DNA from: Blasia pusilla
Taxonomy: Eukaryota
DNA length: 64,000 bases
Direction of reading: 5' to 3'
Assembly: GCA_050084515.1 (NCBI GenBank)
Contig: CM114271.1
Span: 32,612,001 to 32,676,000, forward strand
Part shown: piece by piece, positions 8,401 through 45,729 of the stretch
How the letters are laid out: each line of letters starts with the position of its first letter
Numbering within the stretch: position 1 is the stretch's first letter
Translations under genes and position numbers: made by a program
Notes under the pieces: model-generated
The model's database searches: none
Told to the model about the DNA's origin: nothing
The model's input: only the letters and a program-made list of their open reading frames with translations

Positions 8401-8448
8401 TGTGACTAGCAATGTATGTTGTGTAGCAATATGTATGCGTACGACAGT

Positions 8449-9066
8449 TGTCACATCTGAGTAGCCGATAGGCCAAGATCTATCGTGGATAGGGCGAATT
8501 AGCCAGCGGACTATCTTGAGTCTAACTTTCTCCCATGGTGTCAAATGAGGTTGAAGATAGGTCCATTATGTCAGGAACGTTGTTTCTAACAACTTTCCTA
8601 TTGAGGTCTTTCACAACCGGGTGACTTATTGACCATGTCACCCGCCCCTGATAACCTATGCGCGCAGGTTACCAAGGGGATGGCTATTTTTAGGGGAAGA
8701 GCCTTTTAGCTCTTTCCCACCCTATATAAGAGAGGAAGATGGCTTTCCTAAGCCATCTTTCTCATGTTGGGCCATTGGAGCACGTGTCTTGTATGTGTCT
8801 GAGATAAGACTAGGGTGCTAGCGTCCGGATTCCTTGATAGCATAGGGTGGACGAGGCTCAATATGCCGATGTAGATTGAGGAGTGGAGTTTTAGGCCAGG
8901 TGTGCCATTTTTACTACTCTTTATTTTTGTTGTGTGATCTCCATTTATATGTACGAGTTGATTTTTTTACATGTGTGGATCTACCCGTGTGTGGGGAAGA
9001 TCGATGTTGTGTAGTGTAGATATGACTAGCGATGTATGTTGTGCAGCGATATGGATGCGCACGACA
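8449..9066 (+). repeat. 3' LTR of element B (family 2)
   Basis: tgtcaca...gcacgaca; TATA-like cctatataag near 8721; its last 138 bp are duplicated at 8309-8446. Confidence 0.8.
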
Positions 9067-12000
9067 CATTCAATTTGCAGACCTGTCAAAAGGGGGGCTA
9101 TCAAGTAGGGATAGATAGTGGAGATCCAATTTTCTCTGGGAGTTATTCTAGTTAAAAAATAAAAATTAAATTTGGTTGGGGAGGGGACAATGTCTATCCT
9201 ACCATGTCCTAGCTGATTGTCCGGGAGACGCGCAAACTGGATGTGGACTTGCTACCGCCGTTGTATGTTGTGTGGTTCGTCGACGCTTCAAGGCCCCTAC
9301 CCGATTTTTGAACTTGCCAAGAAAATACTGAGCCGCCATACAACCGTGTGCTGCTCCCTCTGACCCTACGTTACTACTGCCCGTAGAGCCAGACGTCTGA
9401 ATCTTTATCCTAGACCGCCGTGGCTGCATGTGTTCGCGGCTGGTCATTTGCATTTTTGGATTGATGGGGTCGCTTTGTTCCGTCCGCTTTGTTATGGTGT
9501 GATTTGTAGCCGCTTAAGGAAGATCGAGTACCACGCCGTGATGTTCGTAGGTGCAACGCGCCGCTAATTGGCGCGCCGTGCCGCTTGTGGCCGTACCGCA
9601 CAGTCTCGATCGTCAAGCCGCACCATCACTGGAGAGCATAGCGTGTATTGTTGTTGACAAGGGTATGCTGCTGAGTGACGCACCCTATTATCGAGTGTCG
9701 TGTTGTTCATAGCCGTTCTGTGCCGCGAGTGCCGCACTGTACCGCTCAACCCGCGCCGCACATCGAGGAGATTTGAGCATCGACTGTACCAGAGCAGTAC
9801 GACTTGCTACTTGAAGAGTTATCTTTACGGTCGAGTTGGGGTCGAGTTTCTTTAGTTGCTGAGGTGCGACATCGATACTTGTTGTCAGGCTACCCATTTT
9901 GGTTTTTTGCCTTGCACGTGTTAGGGATTTCCGAGTATTGTGCACTTATTTGGGGATATTGGGTTTCGTATTGATGTTGAGAGCATCATTGATGTATGGG
10001 TTTAGGGGACATAGGCCTGTGTGGGATCGATGAGATGATATGACAATAGACGATTTGCCACACGTGCCGCTTGTTCCGCACAACACACATCTCACTGAGA
10101 GAGTGTAGATTTAGTGCAGCATGTTGGATTGAGTGATTACTCACGAGATTGAGAGTGATCGTGTGAGAGGGACAGGAGGGTCATTACGGTGTCCTTTCAG
10201 GACTTTGAGAGGCAAGCTGGTGGACCTGAGAGTAGCTCTAGAGGGTTTACCCGGAGTGGTGCGAGGTTTCGAGAATCTTCACGTGAGAGATCACCTCGAT
10301 CTCCTTTTGTGTCGTCGTTAGACAAGGGGGAGAGTGTAGAGGAGTGTGCTAGTGATCCACGGCATACATTGAAAGGTCCTACAAGTTGGGCATACGAGAT
10401 GGACGATCGGGGTAGAGGACCGTGTAGGTTTTTGGGTGCTTTAGGCACTATAGAGCTACATGATTTCATGGCGGAGTTTAGGAGTTGGTGTGACTCATAG
10501 CGGGCTAGGAGCTCCAGAGAGTTCAACCTGTTTACAGCATGGGACGGAATGTTCCAACATTTAGAGGGGGCACCCATGGACGATTACCATGAGTTCTCGT
10601 AGAGATATGCCCATGAGATTGAGGCTTGGAGACTCTACTATGACCCACACTATGTCTCATGGACTGAATCATTTCCAAATGAGGAGGAGGAGTCATGAGA
10701 AGGTTCCTCCACCAGTGATGTTGTTGGAGGGGTGACTCGCACTAGAGCAATTGCATCATCCAGTCACTTCGTCCCAGGTTCAATCCCGTGGTTGATTTCT
10801 TCCCTGAGTTGAGGGCGAGGTACCTAGGGGTATGGATGGAGAAGTTGCGAAGCATCCAGGACTTCCAGCGGCGTCCGGATGAGAATTTGCGTGAGGCCTA
10901 TACACACTTGCGCCCGTTGATTAACGTCACTCAGGGGGTGACAGAGGCCTAGGCTATCCGTCATGGTACGCGATGCTCGATCGGACCCTGAGGACACGGG
11001 TGAGGGAGGGGATGCTTCTTATGAACACCTCCCCTACATTGAGAGATGTTTTTAGGACTGCCAAGAACATTGAGCGCAACATGGCAAAGGAGACCGTAGC
11101 CACCATGGGTTCTGGGCGAGAGCAGTCACAATTGCCTGCACCACCAGTGCAACAACGTGGATTCGGAGATAGGTCTCTGGCACCACGAGCTCAGGGAGGA
11201 TACCGGGAGGCCGTGCCACGAAGACTTGCGCCTTCATATGCGACTCAACATCAACCGCCTATGATTACTTGTTGGTTAGGTAATGGAGCCCATCATCAGT
11301 GCGATTGCACTCGTCACGATCATGGTCAGGTGCCTCGCCATGGAGGAGGAGATGGTGCTACACTAGGAGATTATCACTGTGACTATTTTCAAAGGTACGG
11401 TCACACACACGCGAGATGTTTCAGCTTGCACACTAAGTTACATTCGAACCGAGGGCCAGAGAGGGCACTAGAGCGAGTTGCAAGTCCGGGTGGGCCTAGA
11501 GGTCGTACACCATGTGGTCCCGTAGGGGGACGAGGAGTTGGATTTTCCCGAGGGGTTGGTGGAGTTTCTTGTGGAGGAGGTAGAGTCCCACCACCTAGAC
11601 ACATCGAGGGAGATGGCGGGCGTGAGGCTGGGATGGTTGATCAGATACAGTAGCTACAATAGTAGATTGCCGCTATGGCATTGAGGTTACCCGATGCCGG
11701 ATTCATGGCATCAACATCTTATGGAGCCGCAAGAGATATGGAGGATCCTCGTTGGATGTGCGGGGCTGCCCATATGGAGGATGCCGTAGTTGTTACGCGT
11801 CGAGCAGTCGGAGAGTTGGATCCACAGCGAGGGGAAGCCAACAAACAAACCTGGCTTCCTCAGTCCTTCGCGTTGTCCGAGGCGATGAGGACCCCATCGA
11901 TGGGTCTTGATCAGAATTCTCAGAGAGTTGGTGATGTTGTTGGTGTGCAAGCACGAAGAGCCATGGGATAAGCAAGTGCGATGACTTCTATTGCTGATGC

Positions 12001-13093
12001 TCAGGAGGAGCATGTGTCAAGCACGTTGTTGGGGGCGACCACTGTTGTGTATCGCGCTTCTTTATTTTTGCTTCCGATATTATGACGTTGGGAGGTATGC
12101 CCACCGAGGTTTTTTGGCTGGCCGCTACGCTATGTGAGCGTGGATTTGGAGTTCTTGCATCACGTTCAGAGGTGATTGCAGAGGAGGTGATGGACCTGCC
12201 CTTCGAGCTGATGCTCCAGCCGTCCACATCAGATTCTTGGCAGGTTTCCACTGCTAGGATGGCGGAGATGTCCGCTAGACCTACGATAGAGCGTGCCATG
12301 GCTTCTCCTGGTGTTGTTTTGCTAGATAACTGGGGAGAGGTCTTCCTCTTGCTGAGTCCAGGAGGTAGAGCATTTAAACCGTAGCGCGTCTTGTTGGATT
12401 CAAGAGCGCAACCCTTGATGTTGGGGAAAGCGGCATTTAGAGGTTTGGGCTTGACGAGGGTCGATATGGAGCGTTATTCATTTTGGATATAGACATCCTT
12501 GGGTGGAGCAAGTACCACATAGTATATCACCCGAAAAGAGGTCGTGGTGAGGATTTGCCTGGGACATCCTACACATGAGTCCGTGGTGCGAGACAAGGCA
12601 ATAGTGACTGATGCAGAGTCCTACGACATCTTGGTTGGTGGAGCAGTGTTGTACTAGATGGAGTTTTCCCTGGATTACTAGGAGGAGTCAGTGTTACACA
12701 AACCATGATGGTAGTCAGGTGATGGGCGCCTTAGCTCATTACGAGTTCAATTCTCAGATGCAGTGATCGAGCGCCGGCCAGGAGAGATGGCGACCTTAGT
12801 AGCGCCATCTCTTGGCCTAGTGATTTGATTGCGGAACATGTCCACACAGAGGATACTTATATTCCTGACATTTCTATGGAGAGGAGTGTCATGGTCGACG
12901 TATATTTCCGTGGAGGAGAGGTGCCGCTTTGGGGCTCAATTGAGGAGCTTTGACGCTTAGCCATTGAGCATGTGCAGATCGCGTGAAGCGAGACGTTTGC
13001 ACCATACCGTGACAGGTCAGAGGAACCCTAGGCGAGACTGCTATGATCACGCCCTTGGATACTACACCCATTGTATGGCGCATCCCAGAGGAG

Positions 13094-14020
13094 GGTATTC
13101 GGGTGTTGGATCTCTTTGGAGGGATCAACACTGGGTTAGTTGTTGTTTTGTACGCAAGAGTACGCGTGCAATAGTACATGTATGTGGAGATTGATGATGT
13201 CGCGAGGCGCACTTCACTTCACCATGTAGCTCAATTATGCCTCTCTTTTCCTGACTTGTTGTATGCGTCCGCTGTCCAGGGATACCAGAGTTTCCTACCG
13301 AGGGATATTTCATTTCTACGGGCGCAGGACTTGGATCGGGTAGGGACCATAGACTTGAACATTGTTGGTTGGCCGTGTCAGATCCAATTGAGTATTGGAC
13401 AAGATAGCGGGTTAGCTTACACGTGGTCCACGTTGTTTTGGGAGATGATAAAGATTCAGTGACATTTACATGAGCATCAGTCTCGTTCTCCAACATACAT
13501 TCTCGAGAATGTGCCAATTTTGGGTGATTCGAGGTACCGCGTGGTCACGAGTGCACATCAGGTGCGTGCATGGATCGGCACAGCAATGTTGTTAGATGTA
13601 GCGAGTGTAGGTTCTAGAGCACACCGCTCATGTCTTTGATAGACTAACTTGGTACCACACAAGGTATTGCAGAGGGCATATCCACGAGTGGAGTGCCCCT
13701 CCCAGTTATTGGGGGATTACATATTGGATCCGGACCATCAATCACAGGAAGTGAGATACGATGATCGACCGCCGTTGACTTGGGTCAACAAGATTGGCAT
13801 GCCACGGGCAGCCTTTCCCATATTTGTGAGTTTTCTCGCTTCCTATGTATTCAAGGAGGCCGGGCCTAACTTGGTTTGGGATGACCAAGTACAACGATTG
13901 ATGGAGCCCAATGCCGATGAGCGCGAGCGAGCGATGGGATTTCCCACATGAGTGACGGAAGTATCGTTACTGTTAGAGGCATCACGACTTCATGTCTTGG
14001 GTCAAAAGATGGACCTGAAC
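13094..14020 (+). pseudogene. DNMT3-like C5-cytosine methyltransferase domain in element C polyprotein
   Basis: IRVLDLFGGINTG (~13097-13135), IVGWPCQ (~13361-13381), YILENVP (~13496-13516), GSRAHR..L, ERERAMGFPT (13919-13948). Multiple disruptions. Confidence 0.88.
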
Positions 14021-17000
14021 TGCATGACATGGAATTTCAGCTGAGCAGTAGCGGAGTAGCGTCATTTGAGGATGCGACACATCTCAGCTGTTGCTTTGGT
14101 GAGCCCCATGCCTACCGAGACGGAAGAGGCAGTGGCTAGGGGCGAGACCTGAGGAGATCGACACACGATGGATGATCGGGAGAGACACCCTGGGACTTCT
14201 TGGGATGTTTTGCAGGTATGCCAAGAGATGATAGCCACAATATCGAGCATAGTTCCGAGTACTGCACGTGGAGATGAGAGTTTGCAGTTGGCTGTAGGAG
14301 AGCAGTCAAGTTCGATTGTACAAGACGGGGTTGCACCATAGCAGCCACCGACATCCGCGCTAGAGAGTGCTACTGTAGTCACGATGGAGGCTTGGGAGCC
14401 AAATATGGGCCCTAAGTTGACAAGAGGAGAGTGGCGCCGGATACACCAGTTCTTTAGGAGTTATAGGAGTTATTTTGCATTTAGTATGCAGGATTTGGGT
14501 ACGCTGAAGGGTCCATGGATCCGCATTGAGTTGTCGAGTGACACGCCGATCTTCCGAAGACCCTACAGATATAGTAACATAGAGAGGGCTTTGATTCAGA
14601 GTAGGAGCTAAGACTTGGTTGGAGCAGGATTAGTGGAGATGTTGCATGGAGAGTATACATCTGCCACTGTCATGCTCACCAAGAAGGATGTGTACGGCAA
14701 TTGGACGGATAGGTGGATGTGTGGAGATTACCGACCTATCAATCGGCAGAGGAAGTTCGATAGGTATGCCATTCCCACCCCTCAAGAGATCTTTGATGCT
14801 ATTGGGAATGCAAAGGTCTTCAGTTTGTTAGATCTTCAAGCTAGATACCATTAGTTGCCTATCAGATTGGAGGACAGGCAGAAGATGAAATTCCGGGGTA
14901 TCGATCCTCACAGGAAGGATTGCTTATACCAGTGGCGGTTCTTACCATTCGGGTTAAAGAACGCTCCAGTTGAGCTTCATAGGATCGTTGATAGGATCTC
15001 GGCACGTCTGGATTTTGCTAGGTGTTATATTGATGTTATCATAGTCCTTACCGCCATGGTTGAGGAGCATGCGCGACATCTAGAGGAGGTGTTTCGAAGA
15101 TTTCAATTATATGGGCTAAAGCTACATCCAGGCAAGTGCAAGTTCTTCTATGACCAGATTGAGTACTTGGGTCATACGATATATCGAGGTGGCCTTGGTA
15201 TGCAACAGATAAACATAGAGGCTATTCCATGCATTCCACGCCCTACAGATGTGAGTCGAGTTCGTGCATTCATGGGATTGGCGAATTTTTATCGAAGGTA
15301 CGTCAAGGGGTTCAGTTTGATTGATAAGCCGCTAACCTTTCTGACCAAGGTGAATCAGTAGTGGCATTGGGAGGATGAGCAAGAAAGAGCATTTCAGCTG
15401 CTCAAGGACATATTGACGTCCGTGCCCATATTAAGGAGAGCGATCAGGGGATGTCCATTCCAATTGCATACCGATTGGAGCATGTTGGGGCTTGGAGCCA
15501 TGCTCACCCAACATGAGGATGATGGTAGAGAGTTCGTGGTGGCTTACGCTAGTTGCTCAAGCAATGTTGTAAAGGCGGAGCATAGCTTGTGTGAGCGTGA
15601 GTGCTTGGCTGTGGTGTGGGTTGTTGCACATTTGAGGTATTATCTATTCGACAACCTCTTTACCATCATTACTGATAATCAGCCACTTAAGTGGTTGATG
15701 GAGTCCGACAAGCTTATAGGGAAGCTTGCAAGGTAGGCTCTTTTGTTGCAGGAGTATGACTTCCAAGTGGTGCATAGACCGAGCATGCTCAACTAGATGG
15801 TTTGAGCCGTAACCCATGCCTGAGTCAGCGAGATGCGACTAGAGCTTGTTGGTATGGTGAGAATGATGAGGAGTTGGTGCCAGGATAGCACGTGTCAGCC
15901 TAATTGGGCTTGTTGGTTATGGAGAGCCAAATTGACGAGACTTCGATGTCGAGGTCTGATGGAGAGTCCTTAGATCAAGAGGCCAATGAGGAGAAAACAC
16001 GTTGCCGAGACATTCACGATGATAGAGTGGTCTTGAAGTACCTATGTACTGGCAGCGTCGCAAGCACATTGGCTGCTAGAGAGCGGGATCGGATCCTATA
16101 GTGAGCTAGACGATTCCGGTGGGAGGGGACACATGTGTTGCAAGTTTGGGAAGATGATAGAGTGCGTGTAGTGCCTCATCCTTTGCACAAAACATATTTG
16201 GTGCGTCATGCCTACGAGGAGTTGGGTTATTTTGGAGTGAAGCGAACATATAGCTTGTTCCAGATACAATATTGATGGCGAGGTATGCAGAGTGACGTTC
16301 GGGAGTTTGTTGCCAGGTGCACGATGTGTGATCGAGTCTGAGCATTGTTCAATGCTCCAACTCCTTAATTGCATCCACTTCCAATCATGGATTTAGGGTC
16401 TTGGAGATGGAGTTTGGATCACGATGATGGAGCGGTCTTGAGTTTTTTCAGAGACTGATGCCCATGGCGTTTAATAACTTGGCAATTGTGCAACATTAGG
16501 ATACATTGAGGTATGCGACTATTGGGGGAGGTGGTTATCAACCTACTATCCAAAGGTTTCATCAGGGAGACTATGTTTACTTGTAGTAGACGGACACATA
16601 TGACGTTGGATATGACTGTAGGGCGCACCATCTTGAGAGTGCGTAAGATTTTGCAATATGATGTTCTCTTATTGGAGGGACGTGATGGTATGGTTTGGAA
16701 GGACCATGTGCGTAATTGTGCGCCATATCATCTTTCGAACATTGATGGTGCACTTGATCTGAGCTTAGTAGTAGTCCCTACAAGCTTGCAATGTATGTTG
16801 TATGGTTCTGCTCATGGTGCAGCCACTATGCTAGTCAATGATGGATGTTCGAGAGGATGGCATATGGCATGTCTGACGCCACCTCTCACAAGGGTTCCTC
16901 ATAGACGATGGATGTGTCCCAGATGTACATGGAGTAGGTAGTTCCACATTTCGACTTGTGTTTGTGACATGGATGACAAGAAGGCGACTAACGGTGGGGC

Positions 17001-17242
17001 CACATGAGCACCCTGCCTTCTTGCTCTTAGTGCCTGAGAGATGTATCTCATGGTAGGTAGGGATAGATGGCTATGTGGAGTTCGAGGGACCTAACCATCA
17101 TCTAGGGAGGCGATTGGAGATATTTTGGTACTTCTTGTCTCGTTTTTTTGATGCCATGAGTTAGCATGGGATGGTGCGTGTTTGCGTGTGTGTTCAGTGA
17201 GAGTGATGTATGTTGTGTAGCGATGTGTATACGCACGACAAC

Positions 17243-17869
17243 TATCATGTCTTTTAGGAAAGATCGGTGAGATCTAGTGAAGGGCTTTCTTGAGTAGTGG
17301 AGGACAGGCTCAATAAGTCGAGGATGACCCGTTGAGGCTTCGGGAAATCTGAGAGAGCAGGTTTTCCCTTCGTTGCGGCTCATTTGGAGCCATATAGATA
17401 AACTTACTATTTTGGGTAAGCTTCCATGTTATGTATAGTTGGATTTCTACTTTGGGAAGTGACCCTTGACCCGCTACATCAAGTCAAGAGTCAAGGAGGT
17501 GACCTGCAAACACAGGTTACCAAGGAGAGAGCTTGGGAGAGGGAAGGGGGTATACCTTCAAGAGGGAGAGCTTGAGAGCTCATTCTCTCTTTATTGAACC
17601 TCTTGGCACGAGGCGGCGGAGCTATAGTCCCTTGTCTTGTGAGTGTAATCCAAGCCTCTTATTTGGAGAGTGGATTTGGTTTGACATTAAGAGAGATATG
17701 TGAGAGTGCAAACATTTGAGAGCTATTGGATCGCATTTTAATTTGAGATATTTTGGTACTTTCTTGTCTCGTTGTTTGGATGCCATGAGTTAGCATGGGA
17801 TTGTGCGTGTTTGTGTGTATGTTTGTCAATACCGATGTATGTTGTGTAGCGATACGTATATGCACGACA
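17243..17869 (+). repeat. 3' LTR of element C (family 1)
   Basis: tatcatg (mutated TG start)...gcacgaca; homologous to 2330-2945 and to the reverse complement of 39046-39643. Confidence 0.85.

Positions 17870-17983: not shown

Positions 17984-17988
<5 letters not shown>

Positions 17989-18031
<43 letters not shown>
17989..18031. repeat. (CT)n microsatellite
   Basis: Pure dinucleotide run. Confidence 0.97.
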
Positions 18032-18036
<5 letters not shown>

Positions 18037-18300: not shown

Positions 18301-19377
18301 CTCCCCCTCAAGCTTATGTCAATATCTCTATTATCTAAATCATTTTAAAAATATCTCTAACTTATTTCCACACAATACCTTGGTAATTAAAATGTCAACA
18401 ATTTGTTGATCTGTACCTATATACATAAGAGAAATTTCTCATGCAAGCGTTTTCTCTTAGATAAAGTTGTAATGAACCTCAACGTGCTTTCTTCGAGCAT
18501 GAAACATAGGGTTATTAGCAAGGTTGATACTACTAATATTGTCTGCATATATTACACTAAGTACCAAGTTACTAACACCAATCTCAACAAGTAATCGATG
18601 GAGCCACACCACCTCATATGTTACCTTGGTTACTCCTAAGTACTCTGCCTCTGTAGAAGATAAAGCAACCTCGAAACCAACTATAGGTTGCTTCTTTAAA
18701 GCCCAAATTTATAACTACGCTTCCCAAGATGAAGGAATCACTAGATGTAGAGTGTCTCTCATACATATTTTCTACCCAAACAACATTTGTGAATCCTCCT
18801 TATTGTAAACTTGGAGAAGGTTCAAATTGAAGCCCAAACTAAACAGAGAATTTCACATGCCGCAAAATCCTCCTTATAATATAAAGATGAGGTTTTTTAC
18901 ATGTTTGCTTGAATTGGCTCACTAGGCCAAATGCGTAGCTCATGTTCAGCCTCGTTATACTCAGATAGATCAAACTTTCAACCATATACATATATATATT
19001 ATAGAATCTGAAAGCAACTCTCCTTTATATATTCTTAGGTTCACACTCTGGTCCAAATGTGAGGTTTCCGAGATGCTTGTATGAATTGGCACTCTAGGCC
19101 AACTATGTAGCTCAAGTTTGGCCTAGTTATAGTCAGATAGATCAAACTTCCAACCATACACGGTACATATTACAATATGAAAGCAACTCTCCTTCATCAA
19201 CTCTTACGTTCACACTCTGATCCAAAAGTGTAAAGATTGGCTTGCAAGTTGTCATACAATATTTTGAAAGCCTGTGAAGACCATATTTTCGGTGTAATAA
19301 CCACAAGCTCTGTCCAATCCTAATAAACTCAAGACCAAGGAAGTGTTTCAGTTCTTGTAAGTCCTTCATATCAAATT

Positions 19378-19808
19378 TGTCATGACCATACGGATTATGT
19401 CGTAGAGTATAGTGTGCTAGTAGAGGCCATACCTTATGTAGGGCCGCAGTGTCTAGGTAGAGATGCGATTTCATACATAGGGTTGGGGGTTACTCAGTTG
19501 AGGGAGCTTTCAGAGGGCCGCTCTCGAGGTTGGAGGATATAAGGTGGAGTGCACTCAAAGAAACGATCGATTCTTTGAGTTGAGCCTGTTGCGTTGGGAG
19601 TTAGCCTTGGTAGTGAGTAGAGCTCTTGGCTATGGTGTTTCCCGCAAGCTTTGACCTACATTCTCCCATCGTGGAGTGGGTTTGGCTCGATTGTATGTGA
19701 TTCTACACGTGTTTTATGACAGTAGGTCTTTCACGAATTTCAGTTCTTGTACACTTGTGTTTGTGGATGCTCTCGTCTATGTTATGTATGTATGTGAGTA
19801 TGGTATGT
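19378..19808 (+). repeat. 5' LTR of element D (lacks the last ~40 bp present in the 3' LTR)
   Basis: Starts tgtcatgacc; matches 28450 onward up to ...agtatggtatgt, then diverges. Confidence 0.88.
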
Positions 19809-21004
19809 TGCTGAGGTTCCTCTTGCTACTTATATTATGATCTCATGTGAAGCTATTTGCTCGAGTGTGTGGAGCGTTGCGGATTTTTGCGTGCATGAAA
19901 CTAGGCGGAAGCGCTGTCGGATTTGCGATTCTGGAGGTGTATGGACAACAAGTTTGTCTGATTTTTACTCAGAGTACAGATCTTGGTGGTAGCTGATTTT
20001 TTGTGGAGAGATAGCTATGGTGGTCAATTGAATTTTGGTCGAAATAGATTTGATTTTGGTCACGGATTTGTGAAGTAATTGCTGATCGAAATTTCGCAGA
20101 CTAACTCAAGGTCTGGCTATGGTGGACAGCGGATCGGAGGGGCTCGTTGGTTGGTGACTCACATTGTTGGAGATGCCTATCCTGTTTGGGGCGCCCTGGT
20201 TGGGCCTCTCTCCATGGCGAAGCTTGGCATGTCTCGGTGTTTTGAGGCTTCGAGGCAACTCGTGGTAGCTCGGGGCGAGTGGGCGTGAGGGGCGGAGTAA
20301 GGAGCAAGGAGCAAGGAGCAAGCAAGCAAGCTTGCTTGGGCGCAAGGAAATTTTTGTAGGATTTGTGATTTGAGTGTTGCATAACTGGTCACCCATCTTT
20401 GGGCTATTCTGCCTTGAAGACGCTTAACTGCTAAGTTCTTAACTATGCCAGTGTACACACTGTTGTAGCTCATTTGGTGCTCTTCAGAGATGTGTTAGGC
20501 GCTTTATGCATCTCAGGTTTTTGGTTGATGTACCTCTAGCGCATAGTACGGTGTAGCCTCTCCATGCAGGTGATATTTTCAGGTGTTGCGAGTTCGACTA
20601 GCACGTCATCGACCCGCGGCGGAGTAGCTATTGCGTTAGAATTGTGTGGTGGTTTTGTGGATTCAGGGGGCGCCACGTTTGTGGATTGTGTTACCTTGAT
20701 TTCCATTTGCAATTGGAGGGTTGTCGTTGGACTTCCTGTGTTTGGATCCCCTCCATCGTTGCTTCTTGCTTGCGCGCCCATTGTTAGGGTTGACGCTGAT
20801 TTCCAGAGTAGTGTCACTCCTGTGTGCTACCGATAGTGAGGCTGGAGTGATGACCAGTAGACCGTAGGTGGCTTCTTGTGGTGATGACAGGTTAGGTTGC
20901 CTACACCCATAGCTAGTAGAGCTAGAATAGTATAGTGACATCGACGTCACTTGGTTACTTAGTGGTGATAATTTGGTGGTGGTGCGGCATCGGCGTTGGT
21001 CATC

Positions 21005-22545
21005 ATGGAGTTGTCGGAAAGTCTGGTTGGGGACCGTGGTGCGGACAGTGGTGGTTTCACACGGAGTGGATTAAGGTATCGGCTACCTTTTCCACTTCCG
21101 ACGGTTGATGAAGAGGAGGACGAGGGTGTTACAAACACCGAGTCTTCTACGTTGTTATCGAGTGTTGCAGCTCCATTGATTTGGGACATAGACGAGATAT
21201 ATGGGGCCATGAAGGGCCCACGATGATACTCGGGTGCAGTGGGCACCATTGAGTTGGAGGACTTCATGCATGAGTTTGATACGTGGTGTGATATGCAGAT
21301 GTTACGGAACGCCACGTTGTTTACATCCTTCTTGGCTTGGAAGGGATTGTTTCAGCACTTGGAGGAACCACCCATGGATGCTTACCATGAGTTTAGGAAG
21401 GACCATGTTGCTGAGATTGAGGCATGGAGACAATATTGGTCTCCAAGCTATGTGTCTATCACCCATGGTGGTATTGGTAGTAGTGCTCCTACTATGCCAG
21501 CCAGCCCGACGTTGAGTGGTACGAGTACGAGCCGGAGTGGGAGTACCAGTGGAGGTACCCATGGAGGTACCAGTGGGGGTACTAGTGGAGGTACTAGTGC
21601 CCCACCATCGTTTAGCCGGGTTGCAGAGTTCTTCAAGAGGTTGAAGAAGAACTATCAGGGAGTGTAGACAGAGAAGTTGAGAAGTCTTCAAGAATTTGAG
21701 TGAAAAACTGGTGAGAGTCTTTGTGAGACATACACTCGTATGCGACGCTTGATTTCAGTTACCCAAGGTGTGACTGAGGCTCAGGAAATCCAGTTTTGGT
21801 ATGGGATCTTGGACAGAGAGTTGCGCCGCAGGGTACGTGATGCTACTCTTATGAGTGATGATTCACCCACATTGACCCATGTGTTTGCTCTTTCTGAGAA
21901 GATTGAGCTTAACATGGTAAAGGAGAGAGTGGGGACATCCGCATTCAATAGGGATACAACTACTACTTCTCGTGTTCAGCAGCCCACCTCACAGTCTCGT
22001 AGTAGTGTTGGTGGTAGTAGTAGTGGGAGTCGTGGGGGGTACACGCGACCTCAGTCAGGTCGTAGAGGGACACTTGCGCAGAGACCATTTCCTTCATTTC
22101 TGCTTGCAAAGAAGGACGATCATGTTGGACATGTGGAGGTGATCATGTTAGGAAGTTTTGTCCCCAAGAGGATGGAAGACGGACTTTGGAGGATGGACCT
22201 CAGTTGGCCCCAACTCAGTGTGATCATTGCGGGAGACCAGGTCATCCTCGAGAGCATTGCTTTGATCTTCATCCAGAGTTGAGATCAGGCCGCGACCGTG
22301 GTGGAGTAGCTCCGAGAGGCCGAGGTGGTAGAGGTGGTAGGGGTGGTAGAGGTGGACCAGTGGTTGGAGAGCCTATGGTGGCTACCCCTACCACTACGAA
22401 TGAGCCAGCTATGGTTGCCAAGATTGAGCAGTTGGAGCAGAAGTTGGCTACTATGGTGGTATCCAAAGATAGATCGGGTTCGGGAGCACGGGCTTCCACC
22501 TCTTATGGAGGGATGATCTCTCTTATATGGCGAAAGATAGGTTGA
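21005..22545 (+). pseudogene. Gag of element D
   Basis: GTIELEDFMHEFDTWCD, YTRMRRLISVTQGV, CCHC knuckle CDHCGRPGHPREHC, RGG repeats; homologous to the gag of C and E. Confidence 0.82.
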
Positions 22546-23133
22546 GGCATTGGGCTGCGATTCGAGAGGAGCCACGAGGCGTCGAGCCACGTGGTGCTCT
22601 TGTGGAGTTGGACCCATAGAGGGTCGAGGCGGGAGGCGAGCTAGGCTTCCCAGATCATTCTTGTTGTCTAAGGTGCTTAGGACTCCATCCATGGTTCCCG
22701 CGAGCCTATTGAGCCCGAGTGGGGATCGAGGCATCTACATTGCATGTAGTAGACACGGATGCAAAGACATCGGCGATATTGTGGATGGCAACTTCGGTGT
22801 TGGGATCCCCATTGTTTTCGGCCACGGAGCGATGGCTTTAGTCGTTGACTTAGCTCTGTGATTTCAGCTAGCGACCACGTTGTGTGAACGTGGGGGTATT
22901 ATTGCTACACGTCTTTGAGGTGGATGAGGGTGTTGCAAAGTGGGAGCGACCCTCTATGTCATGTGTAGCATTGAGTACCGGTGCTACTTGGCGGCGGCAA
23001 AGGCGGGAAGATGGATGCATTACGGCCGGCCGACCATTGATCGTGAGAGGCTTACACCTGGTGTATGTATGTTGGACAACCGGGTGGGATATTCGATTGG
23101 TGAGTCCTACAGACAGGTGTATAGACCAGATAG

Positions 23134-23430
23134 AGTCTTGTTAGACTCGGTGCCCAACCTTGATGTTGGGAAAGGCGGCATGTATTGGTTTGGGTATTCG
23201 GAGGTCAGAGTTTGAGCCTTCCCCATTCCAGATTCAAACATCACTTGGAGGAGCCAATGATAGGTCTCAATTCATGACAAGGGAGAAGTTTTCTGTACAG
23301 TTGAGACCAGATCATGCGACTGATAGCTCCCGGTTGGGAGTACCTGCAGTGGTCACATCAGCCGAGTCGTCTGATGTACTAGTTGGAGGAGCAATATTGT
23401 ACCCGATGGGTTTTCAGATGGATTACTAGA
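23134..23430 (+). pseudogene. Aspartic protease of element D
   Basis: VLLDS(G) active-site motif with a frameshift, flap-like IQTSLGG, and DVLVGGAIL. Confidence 0.75.
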
Positions 23431-23868
23431 CTGAGACAGCGTCTTATAGACCTGGTTGGCAGTCCGGGGATGGACGTATGAGCCAAGTTCCTGTGAGATT
23501 TATTTATGGGGCTCAACAAGGAGGGTCTTCCCCAACAGTGTTAGCATCTGTGGCTGGTTTTAGTGGAGTAGTCACTTGGCCATAAGACTTTTTGGAGGGT
23601 AATGTTTTTGCTATGGATTCTCCTGTGCATGAGCAGATAGAGGAGGTCCCTATTTTTGCAGTAGTGGCATCCTCATCGTTGGATGTGCCACTTTGGAGTT
23701 CAGGCGGTGCACTACGGCAGGAGGCTGATCGCCTAGTGCAGGAGGCTTGGTGTGAGGCTCTTATACCTCACGAGGAAGAGGAGGCCCCACGGCGGACTCT
23801 TACTTCTAGTCGATTAGGTTATCCCCTTTGGATACTACACCCATTGTATGCAAAAGATATCTGCGGAG

Positions 23869-24800
23869 GGCATTTGTGTGTTAGATCTCTTTGGTGGGAT
23901 TAGCACGAGTTTGGTCTGCAGATGTTGCAGCCGGTATTCTGTCTTGGAGATACGTGTATGTGGAGCGAGATGAGACGGCCCAGAGAGTCTCATCCCGACA
24001 TATTGGTCAGTTGATGCGGAGATATCCTGAGTTCTTGCCGCCATCAGCTATTCGTGGGTACCAGCGTGCTTTGCGGTCACGCATTGCATTGTTGGGGCGC
24101 AGGACCTTGAGAGGGTTGGTCCTGTGGATTGGGTGATTGCTGGATGGTCATGTCGGGATCATACACGTGCTCGTCGTGGTGAGGGATTACACGACCCTAG
24201 GTCTCGATTGTTTTGGGAGATGTTACGGGTGTTACGACATCTTCAGGTTCATCAGGCACGTGCTCTAGCTTACATTCTGGAGAATGTTCCATTGTTGGGT
24301 GACACTCGGACCCGGATGATGGCGAGTGTTCATGAGGTGCGCTCTTGGATTGGACCAGCGGTGTTGTTGGATGTAGCGCGAGTTGGCTCACGTGCACATC
24401 GTCCACGCTTGTGGTGGACAAACTTGTTGCCTATGGAGGTTCTACGTCGAGCATATGATGTAGTGCAGCGGGATCCTTGCCTTACAGTGGATAGTATCTT
24501 GGATACTGGGCGACTTTCTCAGGTGGTGAGGGTTATTGATCGGTCACCCATGGCAATGGTGAACCGTGTGGGCCAGCCTAGGATGGCACTACCCACATTT
24601 GTGAGTTTTCCCTCGTCACATGCATACAGGGAAGGTGGTCCCGGGCTTGTATGGGATTCTCATGCGCGACAGTTGGTGGAGCCTAAAGCTAATGAGAGAG
24701 AGCGTGCGATGGGATTTGCTACTGGTGTGACAGCGGTTGCTTCCATTTCTGAGGCTTCACGATGTTATGTGTTGGGTCTGGCCATGGACCTGAATTTTTT
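23869..24800 (+). pseudogene. DNMT3-like C5-cytosine methyltransferase domain in element D polyprotein
   Basis: ICVLDLFGGIST, YVYVERDE, VIAGWSCRDH, YILENVP, LLDVARVGSRAHRPRLWWTNLLP, ERERAMGF, VLGLAMDLN. Most of it lies in ORF 24124-25065, same frame as the RT ORF 25072-26220, separated by one TAG. Confidence 0.92.
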
Positions 24801-25071
24801 GACTTGGATTTTGAGTGTTGGTATGGCCAAGCAGCGTCGACTTCGAACTATGTCTGTGGGTCGTCCAGCCCTTGTAATGAGCTCGATGGCTACCGGGACG
24901 GTAGAGGCATCGCCTGGGGGCGATGAGAGTAGTATTTTGCATCCTTGGAGTAAATGGGATGTAATGGCTGGGCATGTGGAGCTGGTTGCTTATGCTGGTG
25001 GAGGAGTTATTTGCTCAGATGATGGTGTAGGTAAGGGTGTACCATCTTGTGAGGGGGTTGCGTAGCAGCCA

Positions 25072-26600
25072 ATGGCATCGTCCTCTCCCTCTAGTGTGCC
25101 AGTGGAGGAGACTTGGGAGCCATTACTTGGACCCAAGGGAGGTGAGAAACGACGCTTGACACAGTTTCTACGTGCTTATAGGAGTTGTTTAGCCTTTAGC
25201 ATGAAGGACTTGGGTTCTTTGGTTGGACCCGGTATACGGATTGATTTGGCTAGTGATACGCCAATCTTCCGTCGTCCCTACCAATATAGTGATATGGAGA
25301 GGGACCTGATTCAGAGTAGGACGTTGGACCTTTTGGAGGCTGGATTAGTGGAGTTGTCGCATGGAGAGTATGCATCAGCCACTGTCATGCCTGCTAAAAA
25401 GGACGTGCATGGCAACTACACAGATAGACGGATGTGTGGAGATTATCGTCCTATCAATCGGCAAACCAAGGCCGATAGGTATGCCACGCCTACACCTGAG
25501 GAGATCTTTGATGTGGTGGGACAGGCAAAGATTTTCAGTACTTTGGATCTTCGGGCAAGATACCATCAATTGCCAATTCGGGAGAGTGACAAGGCCAAGA
25601 CAGCATTTTGGGGTATCAACTCTCATGGCAAGGATTGTTTGTACGAGTGGAAATTATTACCCTTTGGGTTGAAGAATGCACCTGCCGAGTTTCAGAGAGT
25701 GATGGACAGGATCCTAGCAGGGTTGGATTTTGTTCGGTGTTACATTCATGATATCTTGGTGTGCAGTTACACGGTGGAGGAGCATCAGATACATTTGCAG
25801 ATGGTGTTTGAGCGGTTGAAAGTTCATGGTCTACGTTTGCATCCAGGAAAGGGTAAGTTCTTCCATGAGGATGTTGAGTACTTGGGTCATGTGATCTATC
25901 CAGGTGGTTTGGGAGATCAACAAGCAAAGGTGGAGGCTACTGCACTTATTCTGCGTCCGGTAGATGTGAGTAGAGTTCGGGCATTCATGGGATTGGCGAA
26001 CTACTATCGGAGGTATGTGAAGGGACTTAGTGCTATGGCAAAGCCTTTGAACCAATTGCTGAAATCAGATCAAGAGTGGCACTGGGGAGATGATCAGGAG
26101 AGAGCTTTTGTGGAGCTTAAGGCCCAGTTGGTGCCGGCGCCTATCTTGAGGAGACCTATCATAGGGTGCCCATTTCAGTTACACACCGATTGGAGTAGTT
26201 GGGATTTGGAGCGGTGTTGACACAACATGATGATGAGCACATGGAGTTTGTGGTGGCCTATGCAAGTCGTTCGAATAATGCAGCGGAGTCGCGCTATAAT
26301 TCATATGAGGGAGAGTGCTTGGCAGTAGTGTGGGCTGTGGCACACTTTAGGTGTTACTTTTTTGGCACACACTTTACCCTTGTTACTGATCATCAGCCAC
26401 TCAAGTGGTTGATAGAGTCTGACAAGCTTACAGGGAAGCTTGCACGGTGGGCTCTTATCTTACAAGAGTATGACTTCCTGGTGGTACATAGACCTGGAGT
26501 TGCCAACCTTGATGTTGATGGGTTGAGTAGGAACCCATGTACTAGCCAAGAGGATACAACTGGGGCTAGATGGCATGGCGAGGTTGATGAAGAGATGGTG
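25072..26600 (+). pseudogene. Reverse transcriptase and RNase H of element D
   Basis: RMCGDYRPIN, FSTLDLRARYHQ, LPFGLKNAPAEFQR, YIHD (YIDD mutated), FMGLANYYRR, LHTDWS, SYEGECLA, TDHQPL. Confidence 0.93.
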
Positions 26601-26849
26601 CCAAGTTGGCATGCATCCGCCTTTTTATGTTGGTTAGGGGTGGACTCTAGTATGGAGGACTACATGATATCTTACTCTAGTCAAAGGGTAGATGGCCAGC
26701 CTTCAATCCTAAGGTTGGAGATGGTGGTACGGATCAGCGTGATATTCATGATGATGCGTTGGTGTTGGAGTTCCTACGGACCAGTAGGGTGCCAAGCATA
26801 GTGAGTGCCAAGGAGCGAGACCGTGTTCTTCAAGGTGCTAAGAGGTATC

Positions 26850-28171
26850 GATTGGAGGGAACACATATTCTCCGTGTGTGGGAGGATGGTAGAGTACGAG
26901 TAGTGCCGCATTTGGCTTAGAGAGAGCGCATTGTGCGACATGCCCATGAGGAGTTGGGATATTTTGGGGTAAAGCGTACGTATAGCTTACTCCTTGGTGA
27001 GTATTGGTGGCGTGGCATGCATAGTCAGGTGCAGTAGTTGGTGTCACGGTGTATGGTTTGTGACCGGGTGAGGGCATGATTCAATGCCCCTACACCACAG
27101 TTACACCCCTTGCCTATTATGGGGTTGGGTTACCGTTGGAGTGTGGACTTTGCGGGACCGTTACCGTTGACTGTACGACATCATCGATATGTGTTGGTGA
27201 TGGTGGAGCACTTCTCCAAGTGGATTGAGTTGGTGGCATTACCTAACAAGGCAAGTGAGGGAACGGCGTATGCGTTTCTTGATAGAGTGCTTAGTCATTT
27301 TGGTGCACCAACCGGAAGTCTTCGACCGACCGGTCTGAGTTTGTGGTGAGTTTCAGGTCTTGTGTGACAAGGCGTTGATTGATCATCGGACCACGTCTCG
27401 AGATCATCCAGAGGCTGACGGTTTGGCTAAGCGTGTGGTTCAGACGGTGAAGAGGGCATTGCGCAAGTATGGCCTACAGAAGGGGCATCTTGGAGACAGG
27501 GATATTCATTTGCCATGGGGTATAGGTTCAATTGCCAAGCATCCTTGGCTTCCTTCTCACCTTATTTTTTGTTATACGACTGAGATCCAAACTTGCCAGC
27601 AACAATTCGTCGGGAGTCTAGTGAGGTGGTGAACCTTAATGACCCAGAGATGTGGATGAGAGTGTGTTATCAGTGGGCAGAGCTCTTTCGGAGAGTTATG
27701 CCAACAGCCTTTGAGAATCTTGCCATTGCTCAACACAGGGATACGTTGCGGTATGCAACCATTCGGGGTGGAGGTTATCGACCATCAATTTGTAGGTTCC
27801 ATGTGGGGGACTATGTCTATTTGCAGCAGATTGCACCGACAACGTTGGATGTGACGGCAGGCCGCACTATTTTACGAGTGTGCGAGGTGTTAGCTTTTGG
27901 AGTTCTCATGTTGGAGGGTCGTGATGGATTTGTTTGGAAGGACCATGTGCGTAATTGTGCACCATGTTATCTTCCAAATGTGGATGGTACTGTTGACCCA
28001 AGCTTAGCCATGATACGTGCTAGCTTGAGGTGCATGTTGTGTGGGTCTGCTGGTAACGCAACCCCTATGTTGATGTGTGATCGGTGTTCTAGGGGTTAGC
28101 ATATGATGTGTTTGACTCCACGTATGGATGTTGTTCCTACTGGAAGGTGGGTTTGTCCTCGATGTACTTAG
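26850..28171 (+). pseudogene. Integrase with C-terminal PHD finger (28031-28165) of element D
   Basis: HHCC (HAHEELG...CMVCD), WSVDFAGP, HPEADGLA, GDYVYL; CMLC...CDRC..H..C...WVCPRC. Confidence 0.9.
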
Positions 28172-28449
28172 GAGGGGTAGATGACTAGATCTTTGCATGA
28201 TATGGATTACAGATGTGCGACTAACGATGGGGCAACCTAGCACCCGGCCTTCTGATTTGTGCACCCAAGAAGGTGTATAGCATGTAGTAGATGTATAGGG
28301 CTACCTAGGAGTTAGAGGACCTAAACTTGATTAGGGGGCGAGTTGTGGTACACTTGTGTTTGTGGATGCTCTCGTCTATGTTATGTATGTATGTGAGTAT
28401 GGTATGTCAGCGATGTATGTTGTATGATGATGTGGATTCGCACGACAAC

Positions 28450-28922
28450 TATCATGACCATACGGATTATGTCGTAGAGTATAGTGTGCTAGTAGAGGCC
28501 ATACCTTATGTAGGGCCGCAGTGTCTAGGTAGAGATGCGATTTCATACATAGGGTTGGGGGTTACTCAGTTGAGGGGAGCTTTCCAGTAGGGCCCACTCT
28601 CAGGTTGGAGGATATAAGGTGGAGTGCACTCAAAGAACAGTCAATTCTTTGAGTTGAGCCTGTTGCGTTGGGAGTTAGCCTTGGTAGTGAGTAGAGCTCT
28701 TGGCTATGGTGTTTCCCGCAAGCTTTGACCTACATTCTCCCATCGTGGAGTGGGTTTGGCTCGATTGTATGTGATTCTACACATGTTTTATGACAATAGG
28801 TCTTTCACGGATTTCAGTTATGGTACACTTGTGTTTGTGGATGCTTTCGTCTATGTTATGTATGTATGTGAGTATGGTATGTCAGCGATGTATGTTGTAT
28901 GACGATGTGGATTCGCACGAAA
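28450..28922 (+). repeat. 3' LTR of element D
   Basis: Direct repeat of 19378-19808, plus the terminal segment ending gcacgaaa, followed by the TSD. Confidence 0.9.
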
Positions 28923-29327
28923 AATTCAACTTGTAACTTTAACTTGACTTGTTGTGCCATATCCTCAATACTCCCAATAATCAAGACGTCATCAATATAG
29001 AACGCAATAATAACCATATCACCTTGTCCTCTCAAGACATACAGCAAGGAATCAGAATCACAAACCCTAAATTCAAGCTCTTGTAGGATATGTTTAATCT
29101 TGCCATACCAAGCTCTTGGGGCTTGCTCGAGCCCATATAGAGCTTTCTATAACTTATATAGGAAAAATCAAAACTCTAGATGGTCATATCCAAGTAGTTA
29201 AGCCATTTATATCTCCTCATGGAGATCTCCATTCAAGAAGACATCCTTGACGTCCATGTGATGTAGTCTCCACTTCTTACTCATTGTAGTTTCAACCACT
29301 TTTATTATAATCGACATCTTTATAACA

Positions 29328-37243: not shown

Positions 37244-37246
<3 letters not shown>

Positions 37247-37310
<64 letters not shown>
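37247..37310. repeat. (TC)n microsatellite
   Basis: Pure dinucleotide run. Confidence 0.97.
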
Positions 37311-37532: not shown

Positions 37533-37633
<101 letters not shown>

Positions 37634-38459
37634 GAAAATTGATCATGAAATTTTAAGGGTTTAGGGTTTTGAGACCATTTTGATAGAAATCCAATGGTCA
37701 TTAATGTAGTGTTGTGAATAAATATTTTTACAAAATTTTGAAAATTTTAAGTTATTGATTGATTGATTGATTGATTTACCTAAATTATATAAGTGATTTT
37801 GTTTCTAAATTTATACTCGAAGTTGAGACGATTTCTTTATATAAATTTTAATCAGAAAATTACAATAAGAATCATGAAGTCTTACAATCGATACAAGGAG
37901 TGGTAAATCTAATATTCTTAGGTACTATTAATTGGTTTTGTTTCAAACTCTACGATGAATCAATACATGCAAATTCATGGTTGCTTTAATGTGTCATTGT
38001 AGTTTTCTCATCTTTTATTAGGGATATTTGACTTACAATTTAAGCCTTGCAACATATTGCATTCCTTATCTCAAATTTAATTAATGACTAGCTCATAGAT
38101 TTAAATAAATGGAATAAACCTATATAATCCTTCTATTCTTCTTAATTTATCTTTTTTCAAACAAAGGGTGGAAAACGTGAAGAAGTTTGTGTAAAAGTAA
38201 CATAGTATCAATGGCCGACTTAAACTTGTGAGGAAAAATTTCCTTTTTGTAATACATGGAAAAATGGATTCTAAATGGAAAGATGGTATTAAAGGATGCT
38301 AGTAGCTTTGGTAGAGAAGAAAAAGACTCCAAAGTATGAGGTTAGATGATTTCTTTCCAAACGTATTAACATGATGTTATTGGGAATAAAATACTAGTAA
38401 AATAGATTATGGAGATTCATGATGGAATTTTTGATGGGAAGTGTGAGAATATGTCCACA

Positions 38460-45293: not shown

Positions 45294-45729
45294 TGTGAGA
45301 AAACAGAATGTGACGAAATCATTGAACTGTATTAGAAATCTTGGAGATACAAAGTGGGCTAGTCCGTCCGTGCGTTCACAGAAGAGCTTCGATGGAACTT
45401 GAACATGGAGATAACTCCACATAAGAGAATGCGCTACCGCTGCGGCTCTTGGCTATTTCACTAATCGGGAATCTAGGGTTTTTAACCTATTTTTCTTTGT
45501 TTCTATTTATAGAAATTTTTGCAGATCCCCGCGTTGTATAAGGATGTCTCGCACCCTGATGCAATATAGGGTAAGATAATCGTAATAACGCTACTCTGTA
45601 AACCACCTACGTCATATTACTATGACTCCTCCGACGTCTAAGTCGGAACCATCAATCTAGACTTCTCTTCATACAAGGGGACAGATGAGATTAATGGCGC
45701 TGAGAGAAGTGGATGTTGAAAATCCAACA
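45294..45729 (-). repeat. 5' LTR of copia F
   Basis: TG...CA termini; homologous to 41072-41243 and to the reverse complement of 29328-29675. Confidence 0.85.

Follow-up and report, generated by a model that had tools for sequence, protein, structure and literature searches.

An inactivated Ty3/gypsy retrotransposon of Blasia pusilla with a predicted DNMT3-type methyltransferase and an integrase-fused PHD finger

Introduction

Cytosine methylation is the main route of transposon silencing in plants and, because methylation silences transposons, a transposon with a de novo methyltransferase of its own presents a paradox. Canonical gypsy pol contains no methyltransferase domain. The element considered here, termed D, is a 9.5-kb Ty3/gypsy long terminal repeat (LTR) retrotransposon of Blasia pusilla, located at positions 19378-28922 (plus strand) of a 64,000-nucleotide (nt) stretch of contig CM114271.1 (GenBank assembly GCA_050084515.1, positions 32,612,001 to 32,676,000, forward strand), which as a whole is referred to as the window. 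Its coding order is gag, protease (PR), a predicted DNMT3-type methyltransferase (MT), reverse transcriptase (RT), ribonuclease H (RNase H, RH), integrase (INT) and a PHD finger.

Retrotransposons bearing a DNMT are described from dinoflagellates and from the charophyte Klebsormidium (de Mendoza 2018, PMC5890265), as the initial annotation of the window, made from the sequence alone, had stated. KnitGypsy-Dnmt3 of Klebsormidium nitens is an LTR gypsy element with a DNMT3-type methyltransferase in the pol frame, and the figure legends of that paper give its repeats, like those of DIRS elements, as A-coding-B-A-B. Element D resembles it in the predicted non-rearranged DNMT3-type enzyme, the A-coding-B-A-B repeats and a streptophyte host. 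Purifying selection is indicated for both, with a ratio of nonsynonymous to synonymous substitution rates of <0.2 (Ka/Ks) in KnitGypsy-Dnmt3 and of 0.14-0.27 (dN/dS) among the window copies. In contrast to KnitGypsy-Dnmt3, the family in the window is abundant, its hosts are land plants (liverworts and a moss), its first open reading frame (ORF1) is closed after the methyltransferase by a conserved TAG, and D has a PHD finger on its integrase, a word absent from the main text of PMC5890265; the two were likened by description. In their citing passages, a 2025 paper in Molecular Biology and Evolution and a 2026 preprint refer to the Gypsy-DNMT3 case as 'streptophytes'.

Two further systems combine methyltransferases with retrotransposons. 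SymbioDIRS-Dnmt3 of Symbiodinium, as presented in PMC5890265, has a DNMT3-type methyltransferase in its polyprotein, A-coding-B-A-B repeats and two coexisting domain orders, all of which recur in D or its relatives; it uses a tyrosine recombinase, whereas D relies on a DDE integrase and is flanked by target duplications. The EpiLTRs of Cymbomonas and Euglena (bioRxiv 10.64898/2026.05.21.726589) resemble D in joining a DNA-methylating enzyme and a chromatin reader in one LTR element but, according to the preprint, contain an adenine methyltransferase, a DNMT4-related cytosine methyltransferase and a chromodomain, and their authors regard this capture as distinct from the streptophyte Gypsy-DNMT3.

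Histone readers in retrotransposons are also known. Chromoviruses, like D, carry one on the integrase C-terminus, where its presumed role is to guide integration (Gao et al. 2008, cited by both PMC6673714 and the 2026 preprint); their reader is a chromodomain for H3K9me, whereas that of D is a PHD finger predicted to bind unmodified H3K4, so that the marks probably differ. PHD fingers were described in CR1-like non-LTR elements (Kapitonov and Jurka 2003) and in a Chlamydomonas LTR element (Perez-Alegre et al. 2005), according to the citations in PMC6673714, and fusions of transposable elements with PHD were surveyed in bioRxiv 10.1101/2021.11.30.470311; in the passages on these elements no methyltransferase is reported alongside. 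The lycophyte Selgy group, which the initial annotation had named as PHD-tailed, could not be confirmed as such: the main text of Neumann 2019 does not contain the word PHD and mentions neither PHD nor a methyltransferase for Selgy or Phygy. No description of a bryophyte or chlorophyte gypsy element with both DNMT3 and PHD was found in full-text searches of the literature, which did not extend to supplements and figures. The Gypsy-DNMT3 kind and the presence of PHD in retrotransposons are, on these sources, already known; the land-plant hosts, the regular pairing of integrase and PHD, the two layouts described below, the ORF1/ORF2 boundary and the evidence of transcription appear to be new.

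Results

Domain order and decay of element D

With good confidence, and together with the functions proposed for its parts in the Discussion, element D was assigned, as an inactivated copy, to a liverwort-type lineage within the Gypsy-DNMT3 LTR retrotransposons, the kind first reported as KnitGypsy-Dnmt3. Pfam domain scans and the order in related copies confirmed the architecture PR-MT-RT-RH-INT-PHD of the initial annotation: the Ty3/gypsy pol order PR-RT-RNase H-DDE integrase (H2C2) was found, with the methyltransferase between PR and RT. The PHD, RVT_1 and rve profiles suggested at that stage all matched, and the agreement as a whole is far beyond chance. The features of element D, followed by the related copies in the window, are listed below (aa, amino acids; E, E-value).

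19374-19377, no strand: left target-site duplication AATT, the same 4 bases as 3' of element D
19378-19808, plus: 5' terminal repeat ('A' and the initial 67 nt of 'B'), starting TGTCATG, 97.7% identical to 28450-28882
19809-21187, plus: leader of about 1.4 kb without a long ORF (ORF list, nucleotide comparison)
21188-22545, plus: gag with two CCHC knuckles, broken frames, colinear with the N-terminus of Marchantia protein P0002
22930-23429, plus: aspartic protease in two frames, 45-48% aa identity to copies B and C
23803-25062, plus: predicted DNMT3-type C5 cytosine methyltransferase and tail, 420-codon frame with six motifs
23884-23901, plus: motif I, DLFGGI
24139-24153, plus: motif IV, AGWSC
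24280-24288, plus: motif VI, ENV
24394-24423, plus: motif VIII, AHRPRLWWTN
24700-24717, plus: motif IX, ERAMGF
24772-24789, plus: motif X, LGLAMD
25063-25071, plus: in-frame stop context TAG CAG CCA, ORF1/ORF2 divider
25066-26220, plus: reverse transcriptase, open frame of 384 aa, RVT_1 E 4.2e-26
26199-26801, plus: Ty3-type RNase H, RT_RNaseH E 5e-32
26783-27632, plus: integrase, H2C2 and DDE core, Integrase_H2C2 E 2.1e-14, rve E 1e-6
27584-28030, plus: integrase C-terminal region and linker, by likeness to protein P0023
28031-28165, plus: PHD finger C4HC3 with one in-frame stop, PF00628 41.7 bits, E 1.2e-10
28341-28448, plus: internal repeat 'B1', equal to the final 108 nt of the 3' repeat, ending ...CACGACA
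28450-28922, plus: 3' terminal repeat ('A2' and 'B2'), from repeat comparison
28923-28926, no strand: right target-site duplication AATT, matching 19374-19377
1-2946, plus: copy A, tail only
2947-9066, plus: copy B
9067-17869, plus: copy C
about 38458-40578, minus: copy E

The gag and protease pieces of D were not matched in the Pfam scan and were therefore assigned through colinear relatives, whose gag matches zf-CCHC and whose protease-homologous stretch matches Asp_protease_2; the gag of D is 57% identical in aa to those of copies C and E. The reading frames of D are decayed, with three in-frame stops in the methyltransferase, one in the PHD finger and frameshifts in gag, PR and integrase, the last containing stops and a frame break near 27310-27345 (three-frame reading). 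Copy D is a dead element.

Identity and ancestry of the methyltransferase

The six C5-methyltransferase motifs (I, IV, VI, VIII, IX and X) reported initially were recovered at their positions in linear order and in a single frame. Motif IV reads SC in D and PC in copies B and C. The proposed check against the Pfam family DNA_methylase gave a divided result, in which copies B (35.5 bits, E 9.5e-9) and C (22.9 bits) exceeded the cut-off of 22 bits and D itself (21.4 bits, E 1.9e-4) stayed just under it.

The claim of a DNMT3-like enzyme held in three kinds of comparison. A phmmer search of the Protein Data Bank (PDB) with the D sequence returned DNMT3A (6.9e-8), followed by DNMT3B and DNMT3C, with M.HaeIII at 0.11. 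A profile of 14 family sequences, likewise compared with the PDB, matched DNMT3A at 1.6e-20 (76.5 bits), DNMT3B at 1.2e-18 and DNMT3C at 1.8e-18, and lower down M.HhaI (1.5e-9), DRM (1.5e-7) and DNMT2 (3e-6), the next family reaching 40.4 bits. An AlphaFold (AF2) model of the relative P0032 (predicted local distance difference test score 85.5, predicted template modelling score 0.86) was compared with the PDB in Foldseek, and all 35 matches listed (ranks 1-50) were DNMT3A, DNMT3B or DNMT3C, with target template modelling scores of 0.40-0.80. On these sequence and model comparisons, the domain is predicted to be a non-rearranged DNMT3-type C5 enzyme.

Animal DNMT3 proteins carry PWWP and ADD domains in cis. 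In D, the sole chromatin reader is the PHD finger, on a different cleavage product; the catalytic type and the linear motif order of D are those of host DNMT3 of animals and non-flowering plants, as presented by Yaari et al. 2019 (PMC6453930), which are cellular genes.

All three window copies retaining the region (B, C and D) have the methyltransferase between PR and RT, at 44-62% aa identity. Among them, Nei-Gojobori dN/dS lay at 0.14-0.27 in the methyltransferase, compared with 0.12-0.18 in RT, values that are rough because dS was saturated (0.9-2.0); the proportion of nonsynonymous differences was nonetheless about half that of synonymous ones or less. With 1163 relatives found in protein sets (see below), the initially considered case of a secondary insertion out of frame with pol was refuted. 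The methyltransferase is ancestral to the family and was under purifying selection during its diversification. In many relatives, motif IV has EC in place of PC (GGWECQD / GGFECQD), with the catalytic Cys retained and the preceding Pro not.

The conserved stop between methyltransferase and reverse transcriptase

The methyltransferase frame of D closes at the TAG at 25063-25065, after which RT continues without a change of frame. Copy C has the identical nine-base sequence TAG CAG CCA at the corresponding position, even though silent sites are otherwise saturated between the two copies. Among 23 predicted relatives, five terminate exactly at this TAG (P0002, P0003 and P0011 of Marchantia, P0004 of Calypogeia, and P0006) and two stop 1-2 residues before the site, while the remaining ones are shortened or are spliced models skipping it. 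The TAG shared by D, C and liverwort proteins indicates for the liverwort lineage a division into ORF1 (gag-PR-MT) and ORF2 (RT-RH-INT-PHD). The sequence TAG CAG CCA fits the leaky-stop motif UAG-CAR-YYA of plant viruses. Copy B has lost, at 5352-5549, the last part of the methyltransferase tail along with some 190 residues from the start of RT, so that the junction with the stop is missing there.

The description of the coding region as one polyprotein was accordingly upheld in part: in D it is interrupted by the conserved TAG unless this is read through, whereas the relative P0277 has PR-MT-RT-RH-INT-PHD in a single ORF of 2358 aa with no dividing stop.

The PHD finger

The PHD finger of D scored well above the PF00628 cut-off of 24 bits. 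In each of the four window copies that retain the tail, a PHD stands behind the integrase; the eight zinc ligands are complete in A, where the domain is intact, and in D, which has the stop, while two ligands are changed in C and the domain is partly deleted in B. The PHD finger fused to the integrase C-terminus occupies the place of the chromodomain in chromoviruses. Only PHD-type families matched 27584-28270 at E<=0.1 in Pfam; a chromodomain was absent from this region and D is not a chromovirus.

Among the matches listed, the best solved relatives of the D finger were CHD4 (1.4e-16), KMT2C/D, DPF2/3 and ATXR5, and KDM5A/B PHD1, PHF21A, BAZ2A/B, UHRF1 and AIRE were also present. None of the 60 solved PHD matches listed was an H3K4me3 reader of the ING, BPTF or TAF3 type. 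The nearest solved domains are presumably readers of the unmodified H3 N-terminus.

Terminal repeats and insertion site

The direct repeats 19378-19808 and 28450-28882 agree in 417 of 427 ungapped columns (97.7%), with 6 gap columns in addition, the 5' repeat of D being without the final ~40 nt present in the 3' repeat. The internal repeat B1 ends (...CACGACA) 2 bases 5' of the TGTCA start of the 3' repeat, and this B1 / 2 nt / A2 junction was also found in copies A, B and C. The order B1-A2-B2, in which B is the final 108-130 nt of the 3' repeat, is present in all four copies (A-D), and D, with all four parts present, has the arrangement A-coding-B-A-B. In D, B1, the end of the repeat itself, occupies the position where a polypurine tract would be expected.

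Element D interrupts a copia RT. Positions 118-189 of the Pfam profile RVT_2 were matched by the right flank and 193-240 by the left one, and the copia reading frame runs on across both flanks, as in a clean insertion. A 4-base pair (bp) duplication was found at both checkable insertions, that of D and that of a solo repeat in copy E. The terminal repeats, the 4-bp duplication and the DDE integrase together indicate that D was inserted by integrase, as Ty3/gypsy elements are. Despite the DIRS-like repeat layout, D does not belong to the DIRS-like elements, since it has a DDE integrase (rve, H2C2) and 4-bp duplications.

Relatives in other genomes and their two layouts

A word-indexed protein search returned 23 relatives, among them proteins of Marchantia polymorpha, Calypogeia fissa and Sphagnum fallax. 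The Marchantia polymorpha model Mp_4g09160 (P0002) is an intact gag-PR-MT ORF of 1278 aa, and the Marchantia copies stand in public protein sets as 'hypothetical protein'. A HMMER search with the methyltransferase ORF of D gave 1163 representatives at E<=1e-3, 566 at <=1e-10 and 135 at <=1e-30. The domain order was read in the 60 representatives of at least 900 aa among the best 150 of the 1163, and Pfam agreed in the five of five checked.

In 53 of these 60 long proteins the methyltransferase stands after RNase H and/or directly before the integrase, the complete form RT-RH-MT-INT-PHD being seen in 22 of the 53. Six show the PR-MT-RT layout of D, and in one the methyltransferase alone was visible. 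Methyltransferase and PHD occur together within one protein in 38 of the 60; the pairing to which the initial annotation had drawn attention is therefore not peculiar to D but the normal condition in a large clade of the green lineage. The named hosts of the RH-MT-INT layout are all chlorophytes (Haematococcus, Monoraphidium, Chromochloris and Cymbomonas) and those of the PR-MT-RT layout all streptophytes (Marchantia, Calypogeia, Sphagnum and Closterium).

A methyltransferase tree was built from 85 of 207 eligible rows, comprising all PR-MT-RT rows, all rows with a host name and 45 random others. The tree separated the 33 PR-MT-RT rows from the 38 RH-MT-INT rows without exception. D was placed within a Marchantia group (support 95) and C within a liverwort group (support 100). 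Compared with RH-MT-INT relatives, D is 38% identical in RT and 37% in the integrase tail with PHD (183 aa, E 5e-37, against P0023), and its methyltransferase is 32-49% identical to all listed relatives up to 49% identity, a range that includes the closer PR-MT-RT kin. Such similar divergence across the modules agrees with descent from a single element in which methyltransferase and PHD were both already present.

One long relative, P0226, a RT-RH-MT-INT-PHD polyprotein of 1974 aa, bears the source label of a 'Minisyncoccia bacterium' metagenome-assembled genome; the contig behind it is most likely eukaryotic (green-algal) and was placed in a bacterial genome during binning.

Transcription of the family

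Three raw-read RNA-seq runs, with the same species label as the best-matching DNA run, were mapped to 19300-29000. The runs gave 2033, 1931 and 2238 reads in this region, covering 29-30 of 30 bins. Nearly all reads were 95-99% alike to D, and only 29, 24 and 35 were alike at >=99%. The reads diverge from D at the frame break 27310/27345, which indicates that the RNA came from sister copies and not from D. In more than nine of ten RNA reads the first mate lay on the minus strand; given the usual design of stranded libraries, the family RNA is apparently sense. The very high summed depth in the DNA run indicates that the family is abundant.

In all three RNA runs (14, 23 and 41 reads), position 26703 was joined to 27699 with 9 other letters between them. 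The ends of this junction are not GT..AG, and no matching DNA contig was seen in the DNA run. The likely source of the junction is not splicing but a transcribed deletion derivative in which the greater part of the integrase is missing.

Discussion

Proposed functions of the encoded proteins

The reader/writer function of the element is a proposal. ORF1 would be produced in excess and ORF2 by leaky readthrough of the TAG, which would bring protease and methyltransferase to the abundance of Gag and leave RT and integrase scarcer. After cleavage, the methyltransferase might methylate the cDNA of the element or the DNA at a new insertion. The PHD finger would tether the integration complex to nucleosomes with an H3 tail lacking methylation at K4, and this tethering could steer insertion off active promoters and into repeat-rich chromatin. 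As to origin, methyltransferase and PHD would both have been present in an element ancestral to the chlorophyte and the streptophyte branches, and the methyltransferase would have been relocated later within pol (RH-MT-INT versus PR-MT-RT).

A further-reaching proposal is offered only tentatively, as a possibility that we consider less probable than not. It supposes an ancient green-lineage Ty3/gypsy clade with an epigenetic module of its own, a DNMT3-type writer and a PHD reader of H3 unmethylated at K4, older than the split of chlorophytes and streptophytes. On one branch the writer would have changed its place within pol, and in liverworts, where the leaky stop follows it, it would be made at Gag levels.

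Several points weigh against the assignment of D and the functions proposed for it. D itself cannot function, given its stops and frameshifts and an SC in place of PC in motif IV; its methyltransferase lies 0.6 bit below the curated Pfam cut-off, and the selection estimates are rough, as stated. The only published assay of the Klebsormidium enzyme, taken up below, gave no methylation. The A1 part and thus the 5' repeat structure are known from one copy, D. No sequence named Klebsormidium was among the matches of three protein searches, so kinship with KnitGypsy-Dnmt3 rests on architecture and repeat layout. The leaky-stop motif and the reading of H3 unmethylated at K4 by the PHD finger are both taken from the literature, and the four insertions visible in the window, all of them inside other retrotransposons, are weak evidence of targeting in a window so rich in repeats. 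The strand rule of the RNA libraries was assumed, and the RNA reads could stem from readthrough or from silencing-related transcription. As to the wider history, the rule linking layout and host rests on four streptophyte and four chlorophyte genera, the branch dividing the layouts has a support of 28 under midpoint rooting, and PHD is absent in all four other checked single-ORF PR-MT-RT-RH-INT polyproteins, which means that it was lost or gained at least once.

Alternative explanations

The methyltransferase might be kept for a role without DNA writing, acting on RNA or serving in nucleic-acid binding or in the recruitment or decoying of host factors, as DNMT3L does. An experimental argument comes from PMC5890265, in whose yeast assay KnitGypsy-Dnmt3 produced no de novo methylation, a result that its authors called inconclusive. 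The same assay, however, was negative for human DNMT3B, a known enzyme, too, while the SymbioDIRS-Dnmt3 enzymes methylated CG in it; no such positive result is reported there for the gypsy form. The EC in motif IV of many relatives and the placement in ORF1, which implies a Gag-like abundance unusual for an enzyme, also speak for a non-catalytic role. Against this, the intact relatives retain motifs I, IV (Cys), VI (ENV), VIII, IX and X, and the dN/dS of the methyltransferase is close to that of RT. Such a role was judged unlikely, and DNA methylation by the enzyme is the reading preferred here.

The elements of bryophytes could also have captured a host DNMT3 independently of those of Klebsormidium and the chlorophytes and have come to look alike by convergence. 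DNMT capture does recur, for instance in DIRS and gypsy elements (PMC5890265 and bioRxiv 10.64898/2026.05.21.726589, in the passages on capture), and the two places of the methyltransferase in pol, the weak branch joining the layouts and the lack of a Klebsormidium sequence for comparison leave room for it. But methyltransferases match across the layouts at E 1e-30 to 1e-47 with 32-49% identity, against 6.9e-8 between D and DNMT3A, and RT, the integrase tail with PHD and the methyltransferase diverge to a similar extent. The rare arrangement A-coding-B-A-B, moreover, is common to D and to KnitGypsy-Dnmt3 as depicted in its figure legends. Independent capture thus appears improbable, and common descent of the Gypsy-DNMT3 elements remains the preferred account of the module.

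The existence of intact Marchantia gene models such as Mp_4g09160 and the transcription of the family would agree with liverwort methyltransferase ORFs being domesticated host genes and D a pseudogene of such a cluster rather than a transposon. This was considered very improbable in view of the terminal repeats, target duplication and clean insertion of D in the copia RT, the five copies in 40 kb, the very high DNA depth and the ORFs that start with gag and protease. A secondary insertion or an assembly chimera confined to this copy, for which nothing speaks beyond the lack of such a domain in canonical gypsy pol, is already refuted, since position and frame are shared by B, C and D, by proteins annotated in three genera of bryophytes and by single ORFs.

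Significance of the family

The one described case in the plant lineage, that of Klebsormidium, is present in few copies in a host not easily manipulated, and its enzyme gave no result in yeast. The family described here is abundant and transcribed in a liverwort and has intact reading frames in Marchantia polymorpha, so that what was a curiosity becomes a family open to comparison and to experiment. Should the enzyme be active, the elements would mark their own cDNA or landing sites. Were the wider proposal true, these elements might be responsible for some of the de novo methylation found on repeats in bryophytes, and the question of why a transposon carries a silencing enzyme would become testable in a tractable plant. 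Hundreds of gene models from algae, bryophytes and metagenomes labelled 'DNA methylase' or 'PHD' are transposon polyproteins and would inflate counts of host epigenetic genes.

Other features of the window

The five related copies (A-E) lie within 40 kb. A, B and C are arranged head to tail, the 3' end of A adjoining the truncated gag of B and the 3' end of B adjoining the leader of C; the arrangement was interpreted as nesting, with A inserted in B and B in C. No 5' repeat of C was found in the window and its leader abuts B; the 5' end of C was accordingly read as lying beyond the window. A tandem array of B and C with a shared LTR was ruled out, as their repeats are unlike except for the final 60 nt. 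In copy E, a solo terminal repeat (39046-39641) with the duplication GGGA lies between leader and gag. The leaders of C (9490-10412) and E (39645-40578) are 76% identical over 958 nt, and no nucleotide similarity to either was detected in the leader of D (19809-21187).

Over window positions 1-29000, the family copies show on the coding strand an excess of G over C (skew +0.17 to +0.25 in 2-kb windows) together with an excess of T over A. The G-over-C skew is absent in the surrounding DNA; the composition of the family and a strand-biased C-to-T change are candidate causes.

A second copia-type RT fragment was found at 41738-42277 on the minus strand (RVT_2, 1.6e-19), and the direct repeats 41068-41243 and 45554-45729, which are 85% identical, may be its LTRs. 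Long GA/CT dinucleotide runs at 17985-18036, 37246-37310 and 37536-37614 are mutually similar simple repeats at edges of the retrotransposon cluster. The sole clear host gene seen in the window, of a plant-specific type that marks the host as a plant, is an open frame of 519 codons at 53393-54952 on the plus strand, which matches DUF702 (SHI/STY/LRP zinc-finger) with E 1.2e-28.

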